From the IMG/VR virus record IMGVR_UViG_3300045988_154391: a DNA stretch of 64,000 nucleotides, one strand, 5' to 3'. The notes under the pieces were generated by a model. That model had not been told where the DNA came from. It did no database searches and saw only the letters and a program-made list of their open reading frames with translations. A program made the translations under genes and the position numbers. Source of the DNA: a virus. Taxonomy: Duplodnaviria; Heunggongvirae; Uroviricota; Caudoviricetes. Below are positions 39,622 through 49,088 of this stretch, in pieces. Within the stretch, counting starts at the first letter, position 1, and every line of letters begins with the position of its first letter.

Positions 39622-40323
39622 TTATTCTGATTCTCGCTCAAAAAATGAGCTGATAAGGGGAAGCCAATCCTCTGACACTTCGCGAGGTCGCGGTTTGCCG
39701 TGGAAAAAGATTATTCGGCAGTCTTTTGGTAATGCCCCATTCCCCCTGGAGTAACGCGCGCTCGCATATTTCGAACCAGGTTCCACAACATCGGCCTTGT
39801 AACTTACAAACCATCCCGGATACAGATCCTGAAATGCTGGTGTATCATCGCCCATAACCTTTCGTAAGAACCCCTGGTCACCCCAACACTCAGTAGTGAC
39901 ACAACGAGAAATCCAACCTTCCGGATCTTGCCAGAATGCACTCCAGATATGCGCTTTAACACTATTTGGTATCCACAGGGCACCGCTGCCACGATATTGT
40001 GGATGGTAAAAATCCCTAAGCATGGTGAAGCTGGTTGGTGGATGCTCTAGGATTGGGCGTATATCACCGGCAATAACCGTGTCCAAATCCAGATAGAACA
40101 GATCATCGGTTATATCCGGTCGGAACAACTCGATTTTCGCCCACCAGCCACGGCACTTTTGCCACTGGTTGATCAATGGGACAACTTTGACGCCAGGTAC
40201 ATGTAAACGCTTCAGGTCTGTCAGGCAAATAATTTCATAGCCTTTTGGCAGTTGATTAACCAGCCACTGCACATCGGAAGCGTTATAGTCACCACCAGAG
40301 CGAAAAACTAAAGCAATCTTCAT
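39622..40323 (-). CDS. Putative glycosyltransferase-like protein (DxD-type motif YLDLDTV)
   Basis: 233-aa ORF; start overlaps the ppp stop. Confidence 0.5.
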
Positions 40324-41012
40324 GCTGCACCATCACCTTTCACTTTCATCAATGTCAGGTTTCCGCAAAATACGGCACCAGTGTCGATATACTGCTGATT
40401 CCAGAATGTCTTCGGGCTTTTCACCGGAGTGTGACCAAAGATAAAACGATCTGCGCCCGAAATTTCGCCACCAATATCATCCATCGAATCACTGATACGC
40501 TCGCGCGCCCAGACAACGTTGAAAAGCGGCACCTCCTTACCGAATTGATATTCATTATCCGGATAGTCGGCATGGGCTATAACGATAGTTTCTTGCCCGA
40601 TGTTCAACTCAATGATATAGGGCAGTCGTCTTACCAACTCCACCAGCGCCCTGGCTAATATTTCCTGATCAGCGTCCAGCATGAAGAACCATTGACCGCC
40701 ATTCATTAGCCAGTTATTCACGTTGCCATCAGGACTTAACGCATCAATCATCAGCCGCTCATGGTTGCCCATAACCGCTCTGAACCATGGCATCTGCAAT
40801 AGCTCCAGGCATTTAACATTTTCGGTGCCGCGATCGATAATGTCGCCGACCGATATCAGTAAATCCTGCGCAGGGTCAAAATCCACACGATGGAGTTCGG
40901 ACATCAGTCTGGTGTAGCAACCATGCAGATCACCAACAACCCAGACATTCCTGTATTTGGTACCGTCGATACGGTGATAAATTGTGGGTGCTATCATGTA
41001 TTCTTCAGCCAT
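40320..41012 (-). CDS. ppp: Ser/Thr protein phosphatase (calcineurin-like metallophosphatase)
   Basis: Motifs GDLHG, GDIIDRG and GNHE. Confidence 0.85.
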
Positions 41013-41620
41013 TCTTTAAGAGTCATCTGCGGAATACCTCCCATTTTCCCGCATGAAACAACGTCAATCTGTTCACGCGCAGACTGGAATAACAAAGGCA
41101 GGTGACTTAGATTTTTTGGCGTGCCGCCGGAGTGAACTCGTGGCTCTTGCGTAGCGTCAACGCCCACCAGGGCTACATGTTTGAATCCGATATGGAAAGC
41201 CAGGTTCAGAGCACCATATGCACTATTGCCGCTGGCAATTTCATTCTCATCTTCGCAAAGGCCGAAATGTCCGGACCAGCGCCACGCCCACCACTCGGGA
41301 GAATTCGTATTTTTTGGCTCCATGCCGCGTTCAGCCACACGACGGAAGCACAGAACGCCGTCTCTGACTTCACGTTCTTTAACATCGGGTAGTGCCATGC
41401 AATAACAAACACCACGGCGACGGCGGCCACGACCAACGCGCCGCATATTGTCTGGCGATGGATCAAGTGTGAAAAAATAAGAAGCGCGGTTAAGCGAGTC
41501 GATGGCCCCATTGACCGCTATAATCGGTACTCCGCGCGGCGCAACAAAGTTTGCGGCGCTTGGGCCACTGCCGACGATAATAACGCGATCACTGCCTCTA
41601 AATTTATTCTTGGGAAACAT
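40994..41620 (-). CDS. GSGPS-motif protein (DUF115/GT42-like), paralog 1
   Basis: [12 protein letters not shown] ... PIIAVNGAI ... [10 protein letters not shown]; paralogous to the next gene. Confidence 0.55.
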
Positions 41621-42180
41621 TGAATTGCACTGCTCCTACTTGCATTCAAAATATGTAAATCTGCGTGTTTTTTGCGGGTATCCAGGAACTGCTGTTGCCA
41701 TTTTGAAATAGACACCTGCGTTGGATTCCGTAGTGCTTGAGGGTGCGCGCCATGCCAATGAAGGCCGTTTTGCAGAGAACAGTCATAGCCGACTAATACC
41801 ACTACTTCAGCCCCTGATTCAGCAGCCAGACTGATAGCCTGCGCGCCGCTATTTACCCCTTCCGCCGGTCCACAATATCGCCTGTACTCCAACGAAAATG
41901 ATTTCGCCGCCGCCAGGTTGGCTGTCACTTTGCGGAACCTCCCTCCCGGTATGGTGGAACCGTATTGCTTCCACCATGACAAATCACCGGCGTATAAGGC
42001 ATAAATGTCATCGAACATCTGCCAGGAATTGTTAACCGCGATGATTGAACAGCCAGTTTTTTCTATAGCAGCACAGTCCTCACGAGTGAGTGAAGGACCG
42101 CTACCGACACAAAAAACAGTCCTAGTCGCCCTGGGTGGTATGTTCATTCTCAGCTGCAAATTCAGCCTCCAGGCGAGCAT
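41518..42180 (-). CDS. GSGPS-motif protein (DUF115/GT42-like), paralog 2
   Basis: VFCVGSGPSLTR ... SIIAVNNSW ... VVVLVGYDCS. Confidence 0.55.
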   Translation of the reverse strand: MLAWRLNLQLRMNIPPRATRTVFCVGSGPSLTREDCAAIEKTGCSIIAVNNSWQMFDDIYALYAGDLSWWKQYGSTIPGGRFRKVTANLAAAKSFSLEYRRYCGPAEGVNSGAQAISLAAESGAEVVVLVGYDCSLQNGLHWHGAHPQALRNPTQVSISKWQQQFLDTRKKHADLHILNASRSSAIQCFPRINLEAVIALLSSAVAQAPQTLLRRAEYRL

Positions 42181-42343
42181 TCATTTCAGCGATTACAGGG
42201 TCCACTACAGCATCTGTTTCCTGTTCATTACGCGGCATGACCGATGCCAGCGACTCATAATTAACCTTGGATGACACGATTATTCTCCCGATGTTAAGGT
42301 GCACTACCACAAAGAGCTGGCATGCACTAATTAATTTATTATT

Positions 42344-47443: not shown

Positions 47444-48068
47444 TTTGACAGGGAAGTATCGGGCTGTAGTGGTAAGCGTCGATGACCCTAAAGGTCTGAT
47501 GCGTACGCAAATACGCGTTGTCGGCATGATGGATGGTTTACCAGATGCCTCATTGCCGTGGGCAGAAGCTATATTGTCCAATGCAAACACGTTTTCACCA
47601 TTTCTGCCCGGCGATAAAGTATGGGTAGAATTTCCCTACAATGGGGATTCTCGATGGCCATTGATAATCGGTTATGCACAGGATGCATCCGGTGGCGCTC
47701 CCAATGTGCCGCCTGAAGCGTCAGGACAAGGTGAAGGCTATGTACCGCCTGAAGTCGAAGGTGCACCAGCACAACCATCAACCAGCGCCAAAAAAGACTT
47801 TATTTCGTCGCGGAACGGACTAATGGAGGTCCGGACGGCGGGCGGAGCCTGGGCCGTTACGCACTTGAAAAGTGGAACAACAATCGGGTTCAACGAGGCC
47901 GGGGAGTTATATGCCATTTCTCAAGGTCCGGCATTCATCTCTTCCGCAGGAAATCTCGATATAAAGTCAGGCGCGGATGTCGCCCTGAAGGCGGGGGGAA
48001 GTATGGCGATAGAGGCCAGCGGGAATCTATCCATAAAAGCCGCTCAAGTCTCTGTTGACAAGGCTTAA
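47436..48068 (+). CDS. Baseplate central spike (gpV-like)
   Basis: N-terminal pattern [38 protein letters not shown] typical of gpV/gp5 OB-fold spikes; Gly/Ala-rich C-terminus. Confidence 0.65.
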
Positions 48069-48071
48069 GAA

Positions 48072-48097
48072 AAGCCCGGCGATCGGGCTTTTCTTTT
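48072..48097. terminator. Bidirectional terminator between the structural block and the ban operon
   Basis: Stem AAGCCCG/CGGGCTT with T-runs on both strands. Confidence 0.6.
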
Positions 48098-48113
48098 ATA
48101 ATGGGTTCAATTT

Positions 48114-49088
48114 TTATCCGTTACCGCACGACGGTTTCTGCGTGATAAACGTCTCAAGCATCTTTTCCGCAATTGCCGACCAGGTGTGACACTGGACCTT
48201 TTCAGCATTTTTCACGCGATCAACGCGAGCAATAACCTCATCCCAATCAATCCGCGACTTGATAACCATATGGTTCACCAAAGCCAGGCGATCTGGCGGA
48301 AGGCAATCGGGAGGCGTTAATACCAACGCCCCGCACATTGCCGCCTCAAGAACAGTTAATCCAAGGCTTTCGGGATGCGTAACGATAAAAACGTCACTCT
48401 TACGCAATTCAGCTGCAAATTCGGTTGCTGGCACCGGCGTCCGTCTGTATGGAATTACCGAAATATTCCCCGGATCAATGGTAACCAATCCGTCATCAGT
48501 CAACGTTCTGGCCTCATACGGAACGGTCAGACGCTGAAGGTTCATAAGGATACTTAAGGAGTGATCAAACCCACTAACATCAAATGCAGCGTGGTCTACA
48601 AAAATACGCAGAACATCGTCTGTTTTGGTTTCCAGATGGAACAGATCCTGATTCGCTGCCCATCCAACATGTTTGTTAAAGCGATTATGACGCTCTAACC
48701 TGCCGGGATTATCCAGGTACCGCCAGGTATCATCGCGGACAGTAAAAGTAATATCGACTGGTGCCGAATCCAGCATAGAACCGTCATATACCTGGGCTAC
48801 CCATCCAGAGAATCGGCGACACAGTTGCATGCCTATTTCCCTGGGTACCGTAGTAAAATACCTCAATCCTGGTGCCAAAATGGCCTTCGCAGAACATGCG
48901 GTCGCAGCAGTCAACACAGCTTCAACATAATCCTCCGGGCTTTCGACGCCGGGGGAATATGGACGATGGTATTGCAATGTAACCCCTGCCTCACTAAAGG
49001 CGCAGGCCAGGTTATAAGCCCACATTTCCGTATATGTTTTCACATCACTGATAGCTTCAAATTTTCGCCCAATGATCAGGATGTTCAT
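48114..49088 (-). CDS. GT-B glycosyltransferase, last gene of the ban-dbn operon
   Basis: Motif ESLGLTVLEAAMCGALVL; start overlaps the dbn stop as ATGA. Confidence 0.7.
   Translation of the reverse strand: MNILIIGRKFEAISDVKTYTEMWAYNLACAFSEAGVTLQYHRPYSPGVESPEDYVEAVLTAATACSAKAILAPGLRYFTTVPREIGMQLCRRFSGWVAQVYDGSMLDSAPVDITFTVRDDTWRYLDNPGRLERHNRFNKHVGWAANQDLFHLETKTDDVLRIFVDHAAFDVSGFDHSLSILMNLQRLTVPYEARTLTDDGLVTIDPGNISVIPYRRTPVPATEFAAELRKSDVFIVTHPESLGLTVLEAAMCGALVLTPPDCLPPDRLALVNHMVIKSRIDWDEVIARVDRVKNAEKVQCHTWSAIAEKMLETFITQKPSCGNG

Follow-up and report, generated by a model that had tools for sequence, protein, structure and literature searches.

Sugar-transferase-like genes of a P1-like phage-plasmid

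The window, a 64-kb stretch of DNA, belongs to a P1-like phage-plasmid with 97.9% identity to P1 across the region. Its four sugar-transferase-like genes are the existing annotated P1 genes dbn, pmgO, pmgP and pmgQ. The locus comprises the following features.

39622..40323, minus strand: pmgQ (P7 hdmD), 233-aa GT8-like (GT-A type) glycosyltransferase (GT)
40320..41012, minus strand: ppp, lambda-type Ser/Thr protein phosphatase (Metallophos E 5e-15; NCBIfam PRK11439, 274 bits)
40994..41620, minus strand: pmgP (P7 hdmC), 208-aa PmgO paralogue, Maf/sialyltransferase/MptE-like
41518..42180, minus strand: pmgO (P7 hdmB), 220-aa Maf/sialyltransferase/MptE-like protein
42122..42310, minus strand: pmgN (P7 hdmA), small ORF at the head of the pmgN-O-P-ppp-Q operon (P1 annotation; phrog_2350)
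42321..42337, plus strand: Oppp (former Op83), C1 operator before the pmgN-Q operon, CATGCACTAATTAATTT, the same sequence as the annotated P1 operator
43228..43244, plus strand: O26/Op82 (P1 annotation), C1 operator with two consensus mismatches in the divergent pmgL/gene 26 control region
48065..48089, no strand assigned: hairpin with T-runs between convergent dbn and 5, AGCCCGATCGCCGGGCT then TTTCTT, read directly
48114..49088, minus strand: dbn (P7 glt), 324-aa GT-B glycosyltransferase, GT4-like
49085..49387, minus strand: additional 100-aa ORF between ban and dbn (phrog_12809), called dbn in the first-pass annotation
49387..50757, minus strand: ban, DnaB-type helicase, upstream gene of the dbn operon (P1 annotation and ORF list)
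53767..53794, no strand assigned: Obanab (Op72a/b), bivalent C1 operator of the ban operon annotated in P1, with two overlapping consensus matches, one perfect

Public records already annotate dbn, pmgO and pmgQ as GTs, a fact missed by the first-pass annotation. Dbn is listed as "possible glycosyltransferase" for P1, glt for P7 and "GT family 4" in RefSeq. The literature searched assigns no function to dbn, pmgO, pmgP or pmgQ, in agreement with the earlier statement that neither surface polysaccharide nor DNA is an established target in P1. The first pass had also described a GT coupled to dbn by an ATGA overlap. Motif and overlap stand, but the naming does not: according to P1, P7 and RefSeq annotation the GT-B ORF is dbn itself, and a separate GT was rejected. 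The dbn ATG overlaps the stop of the 100-aa ORF as ATGA, and this ORF overlaps ban as TAATG. Reference P1 and all phage records searched lack the ORF; it occurs in 52 of 430 matching P1-like plasmids, has no Pfam or PADLOC match, and lies outside the glycosylation module described below. The hairpin downstream of dbn, which was not in the output of a pattern scan, is likely a bidirectional terminator ending the ban operon.

Two phosphatases and a VRR-NUC nuclease had been correctly recognized nearby, with profile matches for Ppp, Pap (HAD_PNKP phosphatase domain, E 6e-12) and PmgM. The VRR-NUC-like match of PmgM (21.1 bits) falls under the Pfam cut-off of 23.8, and its PHROG match is "Holliday junction resolvase" (E 4e-27). 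The proposed C1 control of the operons was borne out by conserved operators, with 16 consensus matches versus 0.39 expected. P1 annotation places late promoters LPpmgL and LP26 in the pmgL/gene 26 control region, and P1 dbn is expressed from the early ban operon. At the head of the pmg operon, pmgN scored as essential by CRISPRi and non-essential by knockout library; the CRISPRi result probably arises from polarity or neighbour effects.

Family assignments

All four proteins belong to glycosyltransferase-type families or folds, as the first pass had surmised, and carry conserved catalytic-type motifs, but none of the four window proteins reached a Pfam gathering threshold. Dbn is a GT4-like GT-B protein, PmgQ is GT8-like, and PmgO and PmgP are Maf/sialyltransferase/MptE-like.

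The window Dbn lacks the first 8 residues of the 332-aa P1 protein and is 98% identical to the P1 Dbn cluster. From its AF2 model (pLDDT 93.7), a GT-B fold with GT4 enzymes nearest is confidently predicted; the best Foldseek matches, GlgM (2.5e-9), SPS, MshA, PimB' and BshA, are all GT4 GT-B enzymes. The score against PF00534 was 25.1 bits (cut-off 26.4). Residues 240-257 of the 324-aa ORF read ESLGLTVLEAAMCGALVL, in which E240-x7-E248 is invariant among 39 aligned sequences. Dbn shares the two-Rossmann-domain fold and E-x7-E of GlgM, MshA, PimB', BshA and WaaG, whereas its N-terminal (acceptor) domain has its own conserved DGS, GWAAD and VDH and no sequence match to a solved GT. The Dbn family is small (74 clusters found), with a phage or phage-like context at every locus examined.

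PmgQ matches phrog_1962 "glycosyltransferase" (E 4e-128). Its family profile matches the GT8 Skp1 alpha-galactosyltransferase 6mw5 (E 2.8e-8) and glycogenin (~4e-3), aligning with GT8 retaining enzymes, including WaaO/WaaJ, over DxD, GDQ and a C-terminal His-Gly-x-x-(K/R)-Pro. D79-L-D81, G148-D149 and H208-G-x-P211 are invariant, Q150 shows at least 90% conservation, and the DxD motif reported earlier is DLD across 28 homologues. PmgQ differs from GT8 enzymes in being shorter and below the PF01501 threshold; by itself it has no Pfam match, and the likeness comes from its sequence profile.

PmgO and PmgP both carry the GSGPS motif noticed previously, and hhalign of PmgP against the PmgO-family profile (96.9% probability, E 1.5e-10) confirmed their proposed paralogy. 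The true pmgO start is probably near residue 12-20. PmgP scored 21 bits against PF01973, under the cut-off, and has relatives in 245 representatives, including fusions to PmgO and to PmgQ. Unlike Maf flagellin GTs (PDB 5mu5), both are ~200-aa single domains without flanking substrate-binding domains; in a further difference from Maf and the GT42 enzymes Cst-I and Cst-II, CMP-pseudaminic, CMP-legionaminic and CMP-sialic acid are not usual products of P1 hosts. It is improbable that PmgO and PmgP are instead MptE/thiamine-pyrophosphokinase-like pyrophosphokinases, with the cluster making or modifying a small phosphorylated metabolite or nucleotide that Dbn and PmgQ glycosylate.

The four genes form one conserved module

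New here, and missed by the first pass, is the recognition of the four genes as a single conserved module. Contiguous, overlapping O-P-Dbn-Q genes occur in EP_H11 (L011, 7894-10583) and IME392 (L012, 4909-7583), coliphages unrelated to P1 in virion, in neither of which was a P1 gp6 homologue found. An O-P-Q trio is present in a Citrobacter lambdoid prophage and, with O and P fused, in a 62-kb contig. Among nine distinct non-P1 Dbn loci, a PmgQ homologue directly follows the Dbn homologue in seven and lies ~0.5 kb downstream in one more; in large phages these pairs sit amid other sugar genes. P+Q fusions, in both orders, were found in four representative clusters, and O+P fusions also exist. 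Clusters of the module proteins hold ~2,400 member sequences, and pN/pS values of 0.10-0.34 versus P1 indicate purifying selection on all four genes.

The P1 layout is less compact. A tail-gene block splits the module, leaving dbn 6 kb from pmgO in another operon, and ppp interrupts it between pmgP and pmgQ. This insertion is confined to P1-like elements: L009, L010, L011 and L012 have no ppp in their O-P-Q or O-P-Dbn-Q modules. This arrangement, and the 65 of 80 PmgO-family loci with no recognizable PmgP, PmgQ or Dbn, would suit unrelated accessory genes that are neighbours in P1 by chance and share no pathway. The contiguous modules of phages with unrelated virions, the fusion proteins and the Dbn-PmgQ proximity at eight of nine loci make that explanation extremely improbable, and dbn, pmgO, pmgP and pmgQ are very probably real GTs forming one module. 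All four are non-essential according to a published P1 CRISPRi screen and knockout library. The P1 relative D6 has no match for any module gene; thus, the module looks unnecessary for building a P1-type virion.

Candidate acceptors

Carrier phages bear on whether the sugars are placed on a modified base of phage DNA, evading restriction. O-P-Dbn-Q of EP_H11 and IME392 adjoins PolX and DNA ligase genes, and large-phage Dbn-Q clusters lie beside RecA, helicase and sugar-nucleotide enzyme genes. EP_H11 and IME392 are listed among "RP13-like" phages. Members of that group encode a YerA41-type DNA polymerase, a dCTP deaminase and a thymidylate synthase, and their DNA has been proposed to contain thymidine hypermodified with oligosaccharides as in SP-15 (PMC12686479). 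Known DNA sugar-modification systems (T4 glucosyl-hmC, arabinosyl-5-hydroxycytosine, and SP-15/YerA41/Carin-5 thymidine oligosaccharides) likewise use clusters of soluble phage GTs acting on nucleotide sugars, and O-P-Dbn-Q occurs in these two phages, predicted members of the SP-15-like group (PMC12686479). The DNA arabinosyltransferase of phage HY126 is a structural match of Dbn, but one of ~96 generic GT-B matches. Against DNA as the target, no thymidylate-synthase-like (ThyA-like) gene for supplying a hydroxylated pyrimidine is present in the 64-kb window, and carriers overlap with sugar-hypermodified-thymidine phages in EP_H11 and IME392 only. By tblastn, module genes were found in no phage of the collection searched beyond the listed carriers; therefore, other RP13-like phages appear to lack the module, provided their records are in the collection. 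We know of no hydroxymethylase or hydroxylase in P1 through which a base could become a site for sugar attachment. P1 DNA is routinely used as a substrate for restriction, and hypermodified DNA is not known in such carriers as P1, phiNP and D3-like phages. DNA, one of the targets raised in the first pass, is thus unlikely for P1, and glycosylation of phage DNA is a very improbable role for the module.

The PmgO family is usually found in late or morphogenetic neighbourhoods, a context that the first pass missed. In 18 of 43 diverse loci flanked by 4 kb or more in both directions, the gene is embedded in the structural operon that runs from head to tail (portal, connector, head-completion, PmgO-like, methyltransferase or GT, HK97 gp10, tail completion, tail tube). 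Five further loci have head genes upstream, and several of the remainder place the gene between the lysis cassette and terminase. The PAJU2 homologue ORF010 is deposited as "structural protein", and the P1 module flanks the tail/baseplate block, with a late promoter upstream of pmgL. Capsids and tail tubes of phages are modified by GTs, according to Freeman 2023 as cited in PMC10877033. As portrayed in that source, mycobacteriophage virion glycosylation cassettes resemble the P1 module in having several soluble phage GTs, frequently accompanied by methyltransferases, within or next to the structural operon, in being dispensable for plaque formation, and in lacking a lipid carrier or flippase; PmgO-family genes of D3/PAJU2-like siphophages are similarly placed. 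In contrast to the cassettes presented there, the genes discussed here belong to phages of Gram-negative hosts, combine a Maf/sialyltransferase-like pair with GT8-like and GT4-like proteins, and in P1 are also under early C1-controlled promoters.

Other observations, among them the lack of any match in D6, count against a virion acceptor. EP_H11, IME392 and large metagenomic phages carry the module amid early/DNA-metabolism genes rather than structural genes, and P1 dbn is expressed early. No glycoprotein of P1 has been reported to our knowledge. Neither a glycan nor extra density is mentioned in two recent cryo-EM papers on P1 (tail-baseplate; capsid with DarA/Hdf), and the main text of the P1 virion-proteome paper is silent on dbn, pmgO, pmgP and pmgQ.

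Alternatively, the module might act at the cytoplasmic face to remodel a glycan of the host envelope; the LPS core, whose glucose is the P1 adsorption target, is the most plausible one. The E. coli core enzymes WaaG (GT4), WaaO/WaaJ (GT8) and WaaZ (Kdo III) come from the same three families, each with motif-level hhalign alignments. LPS-core GTs are also soluble or peripheral cytoplasmic proteins using host nucleotide sugars, as proposed for the P1 module, and in lambdoid prophages the trio occupies a moron-rich slot between lysis genes and terminase. The Waa likeness is, however, no closer than that to other family members (hhalign probability 3-10%, pairwise E 0.003-0.012), and hmmscan did not recover a faint precomputed PF27901 WaaZ_KDO_III match of the O+P fusion P0166. 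New LPS would have to replace existing LPS inside one latent period, and known LPS-conversion genes are not found in siphophage head-tail operons, where the PmgO family embeds. Phage-encoded change of a receptor glycan would be analogous in purpose to prophage LPS conversion by GtrABC, Oac and D3 Iap/Wzy-beta, but those proteins are integral to the membrane, expressed in the lysogen and directed at O-antigen, whereas the P1 proteins are soluble, with no membrane component, and C1-repressed. Because C1 represses the genes in the lysogen, this would not be classical lysogenic conversion. LPS modification, whose only basis is family-level resemblance to WaaG, WaaO and WaaZ, is possible but unlikely. 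If it occurs, the receptor would be masked on infected cells and debris, or superinfecting phages excluded. Neither host surface polysaccharide nor DNA, the targets raised in the first pass, received direct support.

A phage (virion) protein is mildly favoured over LPS as acceptor, since PmgO-family genes lie in late/structural neighbourhoods and proteins are the substrates of the closest structural analogues; this assignment remains tentative. The best explanation, to which we give a probability of about 0.35, is a soluble four-GT module that builds a glycan on an acceptor, most likely a phage protein. All four proteins lack a hydrophobic segment (maximum 19-aa hydropathy at most 1.53), and in P1-like elements the module comes without genes for sugar-nucleotide synthesis, a lipid carrier or a flippase; we infer that it acts in the cytoplasm. 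Donors would be host nucleotide sugars, conjecturally UDP-hexoses for Dbn and PmgQ and, if PmgO and PmgP are transferases, CMP-Kdo, the sole CMP-ulosonic acid made by E. coli K-12. Expressed from two C1-repressed operons, ban and pmgN, and from late promoter LPpmgL as annotated in P1, the module would build a short glycan stepwise during lytic growth. The acceptor, the least certain step, would be a phage-encoded protein, probably a virion component, comparable to mycobacteriophage capsid and tail-tube glycosylation.

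Genes of the region and their control

Along its entire length, the interval 39622-49088 shares 97.9% identity with phage P1, and many P1-like phage-plasmids are equally close. Gene assignments were mapped from the deposited P1 annotation.

Genes in and around the region (window coordinates; names follow the P1 annotation except for the extra ORF)
37479-37985, minus strand: pap, PNKP-type HAD phosphatase
38058-39320, minus strand: pmgS
39322-39540, minus strand: pmgR
39622-40323, minus strand: pmgQ
40320-41012, minus strand: ppp, lambda-type phosphatase
40994-41620, minus strand: pmgP
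41518-42180, minus strand: pmgO
42122-42310, minus strand: pmgN
42344-42922, minus strand: pmgM
42925-43170, minus strand: pmgL
43317-48068, plus strand: tail/baseplate genes 26, 25, 7, 24, 6, 5
48114-49088, minus strand: dbn
49085-49387, minus strand: extra 100-aa ORF, not in reference P1
49387-50757, minus strand: ban

The motifs quoted in the first-pass annotation were all located in window ORFs, and its naming of Ppp and Pap as phosphatases agrees with their families. PmgM, which it called a VRR-NUC nuclease, is VRR-NUC-like with a score below the Pfam cut-off; its PHROG label is 'Holliday junction resolvase', and its gene is the most diverged from P1 (pS 0.22). PmgL is a DksA-like zinc-finger protein (phrog_54), and pmgL and pmgM (within 42344-43170, minus strand) head an operon running on into pmgN-O-P-ppp-Q. 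Control by C1, also proposed earlier, is supported by strong enrichment of operators (16 observed versus 0.39 expected). Matches include the bivalent ban operator (53767-53794) and the operators of pmgR, pmgT and gene 26, and Oppp, the operator 5' of pmgN, has the same sequence as in P1. In published P1 screens, dbn, pmgO, pmgP, pmgQ, ppp and pap were scored as non-essential (PMC10695390). None of 10 region proteins matched any known defence-protein model in PADLOC, and a defence or toxin role, lacking a supporting match, was dropped.

The first-pass annotation described a GT-B glycosyltransferase gene coupled by an ATGA overlap to dbn and hence to ban. These gene names were off by one: the GT-B protein is Dbn itself ('downstream of ban'), and the ORF with the ATGA overlap onto its start is the 100-aa gene. 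The linkage survives the correction, because this ORF overlaps ban as TAATG, leaving ban, the ORF and dbn translationally linked. Neither reference P1 nor any phage record searched contains the 100-aa ORF (phrog_12809); 52 of 430 matching P1-like plasmids do, and Pfam, NCBIfam and PADLOC give it no assignment. Homologues with 33-38% identity occur in the unrelated coliphages Av-05, TH18 and 19-1-2 and in the P1-like Cronobacter phage JK004. Within this C1-controlled operon, P1 tciA/B/C are replaced upstream of ban, at 51140-51967 (minus strand), by a 275-aa gene labelled 'lipoprotein' in RCS47.

Four glycosyltransferase-type proteins

Family and fold comparison places Dbn, PmgO, PmgP and PmgQ among glycosyltransferase-type proteins, in line with the earlier description of sugar-transferase-like genes; their catalytic activity is predicted. 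The likeness as such is not new, being public annotation already: Dbn is a 'possible glycosyltransferase' in P1, glt in P7 and a 'glycosyltransferase family 4 protein' in RefSeq. Compared with P1, purifying selection acts on all four (pN/pS 0.10-0.34); none of the proteins contains a hydrophobic segment, and none has an NCBIfam model. Searched as single sequences, Dbn, PmgO and PmgQ had no significant match among solved structures, so that family profiles were needed.

By fold and motif, Dbn is a predicted GT4-like GT-B glycosyltransferase. Its AlphaFold (AF2) model (pLDDT 93.7, pTM 0.89) has two Rossmann-like domains, a GT-B architecture, and yielded 96 PDB matches at E<=1e-3, the top ones all GT-B and mostly GT4. 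The best were the GT4-type GT-B enzymes GlgM (E 2.5e-9), sucrose-phosphate synthase, MshA, PimB' and BshA. The Dbn family (74 clusters) carries the motif VTHPESxGLxVLEAAxxGA, with E240-x7-E248 in the C-terminal domain invariant across 39 diverse homologues, and the family profile has only a weak PDB match, over the E-x7-E stretch. Dbn scores 25.1 bits against Pfam PF00534 (Glycos_transf_1), just below the 26.4 cut-off, and some close cluster representatives have a precomputed PF00534 match. A KtrA match of the Dbn profile was spurious. In the Stenotrophomonas jumbo phage RAS14, a Dbn-like domain forms the N-terminal half of a 552-aa protein (L013 7947-9605) whose C-terminal half has weak alpha/beta-hydrolase matches; PmgO-like and PmgQ-like genes lie ~12 kb away.

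PmgQ alone had no Pfam match at E<=0.1 and did not reach the PF01501 threshold. A profile of 28 homologues matched solved GT8 enzymes: the Skp1 alpha-galactosyltransferase 6mw5 (E 2.8e-8), 5gvv (E 2.5e-4) and glycogenins (about 4e-3). Invariant among homologues are D79-L-D81 (DxD) and the C-terminal H208-G-x-P211, and the alignment to glycogenin and 6mw5 spans the conserved DLD, GDQ and HGxP motifs. Motifs and profile similarity together mark PmgQ as GT8-like.

PF01973 ('MptE-like') is matched at E<=0.01 by 33 of 36 PmgO-family members. Its cut-off of 34.6 bits is not reached by PmgO (23.4) or PmgP (21.0), while a protein in which O and P are fused (P0166) scores 44.6. PmgP, which like PmgO carries the GSGPS motif, is on profile comparison a diverged PmgO paralogue (hhalign 96.9%, E 1.5e-10); this comparison used PmgO-family alignment A5, since A3 contains the O+P fusion and is confounded. 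PmgO and PmgP show fold likeness to Maf, Cst and MptE, in an MptE-like/Maf/sialyltransferase-like superfamily. Maf ranks first by structure with kinases close behind, so that the pair could conceivably be pyrophosphokinases, an alternative to the predicted glycosyltransferase role that we judge quite unlikely. WaaZ of E. coli compared with PmgO/PmgP gave E 0.004 at 8% probability (hhalign), and a faint precomputed PF27901 (WaaZ_KDO_III) match on P0166 was not reproduced by hmmscan. Because comparisons of E. coli WaaZ, WaaO and WaaG with module proteins agree at motif level only, orthology to LPS enzymes is not claimed.

Translation of PmgO probably starts downstream of the annotated position. 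Its homologues start near residue 20, pLDDT stays under 50 for residues 1-10, and residue 12 is an in-frame Met. Where pmgO overlaps pmgP, the 34 codons encode a non-conserved, low-confidence PmgO tail. In Pseudomonas phage D3 (L182 5691-6409), a PmgO-like match at 5864-6388 spans two annotated ORFs, orf6.5 and orf7, directly after the major head gene, which suggests a split or mis-annotated gene.

A single module, split in P1

Our main new result is that the four genes constitute one module, as gene order and gene fusion indicate. Escherichia phages EP_H11 (OP688485; L011 7894-10583) and vB_EcoM_IME392 (L012 4909-7583) carry PmgO, PmgP, Dbn and PmgQ homologues head to tail in that order with overlapping ends, the EP_H11 operon being completed by an unannotated 211-aa ORF (L011 8394-9029) homologous to PmgP. 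Neither phage has a homologue of P1 gp6, and the module is therefore common to unrelated virions. A Citrobacter rodentium lambdoid prophage has a contiguous O-P-Q trio between lysis cassette and terminase, and a 62-kb contig encodes O and P as a single 376-aa protein followed by PmgQ. With PmgP as query, 1.84 billion representatives yielded no more than 245 relatives; four are P+Q fusions, and both orders occur among them. Of 9 distinct non-P1 Dbn loci, 7 have a PmgQ homologue directly after the Dbn homologue, and an eighth has one about 0.5 kb downstream. In metagenomic phages of 96-281 kb, the Dbn-Q pair stands amid further sugar genes (nucleotidyltransferase-cupin, pyruvyl transferase, GT8-like, GT47-like, methyltransferase). 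Scanning IMG/VR with the Dbn alignment found P1-like loci only; adding distant members brought five loci. That the four genes are coincidental neighbours is contradicted by the fusions and conserved order, and we hold it to be extremely improbable.

The module is divided in P1-like elements by the tail-gene block, with ppp placed between pmgP and pmgQ; in the window it flanks genes 26 to 5. Outside P1-like elements, ppp is not part of it.

Genomic setting and candidate acceptors

We surveyed PmgO-family genes at 80 diverse IMG/VR loci, 43 of them with at least 4 kb on either side. Among these 43 informative loci, head genes lay upstream of the PmgO-like gene in 23, and 18 of these also had tail genes downstream, the gene being inside an HK97-type structural operon; the other five had head genes upstream. 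The order in the 18 loci runs terminase, protease-capsid, portal, connector, head-completion protein and PmgO-like gene, followed by a methyltransferase/GT2/sialyltransferase-like gene, HK97 gp10, tail completion and tail tube. Several other loci lie between lysis genes and terminase. The Pseudomonas phages D3 and PAJU2 have their PmgO homologue in the structural-operon arrangement. That of PAJU2, ORF010 (L181 6971-7540), was deposited as 'structural protein', a label given in its head-tail region to only two other ORFs, the protease-capsid fusion and ORF015 at the tail-tube position; the homologue in Klebsiella phage Eowyn has the same label, possibly copied. Like virion-glycosylation cassettes, these 23 PmgO-family loci and the window have glycosyltransferase-type genes in or beside the structural (late) block, whereas in EP_H11, IME392 and large phages the module sits amid early or DNA-metabolism genes. 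It is best filed with phage-encoded glycosylation cassettes, as a variant.

No gene for sugar-nucleotide synthesis, a lipid carrier or a flippase is provided by P1, EP_H11 or the trio-bearing phages, and the four proteins look soluble. For these reasons we infer that the module would draw on host nucleotide sugars and, while the phage grows lytically, build a short glycan step by step on an acceptor in the cytoplasm. E. coli K-12 is not known to make any CMP-activated ulosonic acid other than CMP-Kdo, a candidate donor for the sialyltransferase-like PmgO/PmgP pair.

We rank a phage protein, probably of the virion, first as acceptor, a tentative choice that we put well below even odds. It is favored by the late and structural neighborhoods, by the nearest analogues (Maf, glycogenin-type GT8), which glycosylate proteins, and by the glycosylated capsid and tail tube of mycobacteriophages, a precedent noted in a passage of PMC10877033 citing Freeman 2023. 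Against it, our searches found no report of a glycosylated P1 capsid or tail protein, P1 is not known to have any glycoprotein, and neither of two recent cryo-EM papers on P1 mentions a glycan. The P1 relative D6 (MF356679) shares gp6 at 37% identity and gave no tblastn match for Dbn, PmgO or PmgQ; the module thus appears dispensable for a P1-type virion.

The first-pass annotation had proposed surface polysaccharide or DNA as target. Remodelling of the LPS core would suit the family repertoire, with its WaaG, WaaO and WaaZ analogues, and the P1 receptor is LPS; the Waa similarity is family-level only, however, and the module genes are repressed in lysogens, making this reading unlikely. DNA glycosylation draws on EP_H11 and IME392, which are listed as 'RP13-like', with a YerA41-type DNA polymerase, dCTP deaminase and thymidylate-synthase gene, and are among phages proposed to contain SP-15-type oligosaccharide-hypermodified thymidine (PMC12686479). 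Their O-P-Dbn-Q genes adjoin PolX and ligase genes. Against it, tblastn found the module in no other phage of that group, most module carriers are not known for modified DNA, and the 64-kb window has no thymidylate-synthase-like gene (tblastn with E. coli ThyA; best E 0.58). For P1, we consider DNA a very improbable target.

The most far-reaching reading, to which we assign a probability of about one in four, is that P1 and many phages of Gram-negative bacteria carrying parts of the module O-glycosylate a protein of their own, probably in the virion, through this dedicated set of four enzymes, and that the PmgO/PmgP pair might transfer Kdo from host CMP-Kdo.

Significance

P1 is among the best-studied phages, yet roughly one in five of its genes, the 'pmg' set among them, lacks a function. 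In the literature searched, no paper gives a function to dbn, pmgO, pmgP or pmgQ, and we found no publication on a single horizontally mobile four-enzyme module, on the P1 copy as its split version, or on habitual embedding of the PmgO family in morphogenetic operons. Four such P1 genes are here brought together as one defined and mobile module for glycosylation, its candidate targets narrowed to a few. As P1 knockouts exist, the module is directly testable, and a positive outcome would come as a surprise in so well-studied a phage. In EP_H11 and IME392, O-P-Dbn-Q supplies candidate sugar-adding enzymes for the predicted hypermodified thymidine. Were LPS or DNA the target, the module would offer a new way of masking the receptor or countering restriction. 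Should it be a virion protein, phage glycosylation would extend beyond actinobacteriophages, with a bearing on the immunogenicity and stability of P1-derived vectors and therapeutic phages, and Kdo transfer, if true, could bring in a protein-linked sugar of a new kind.
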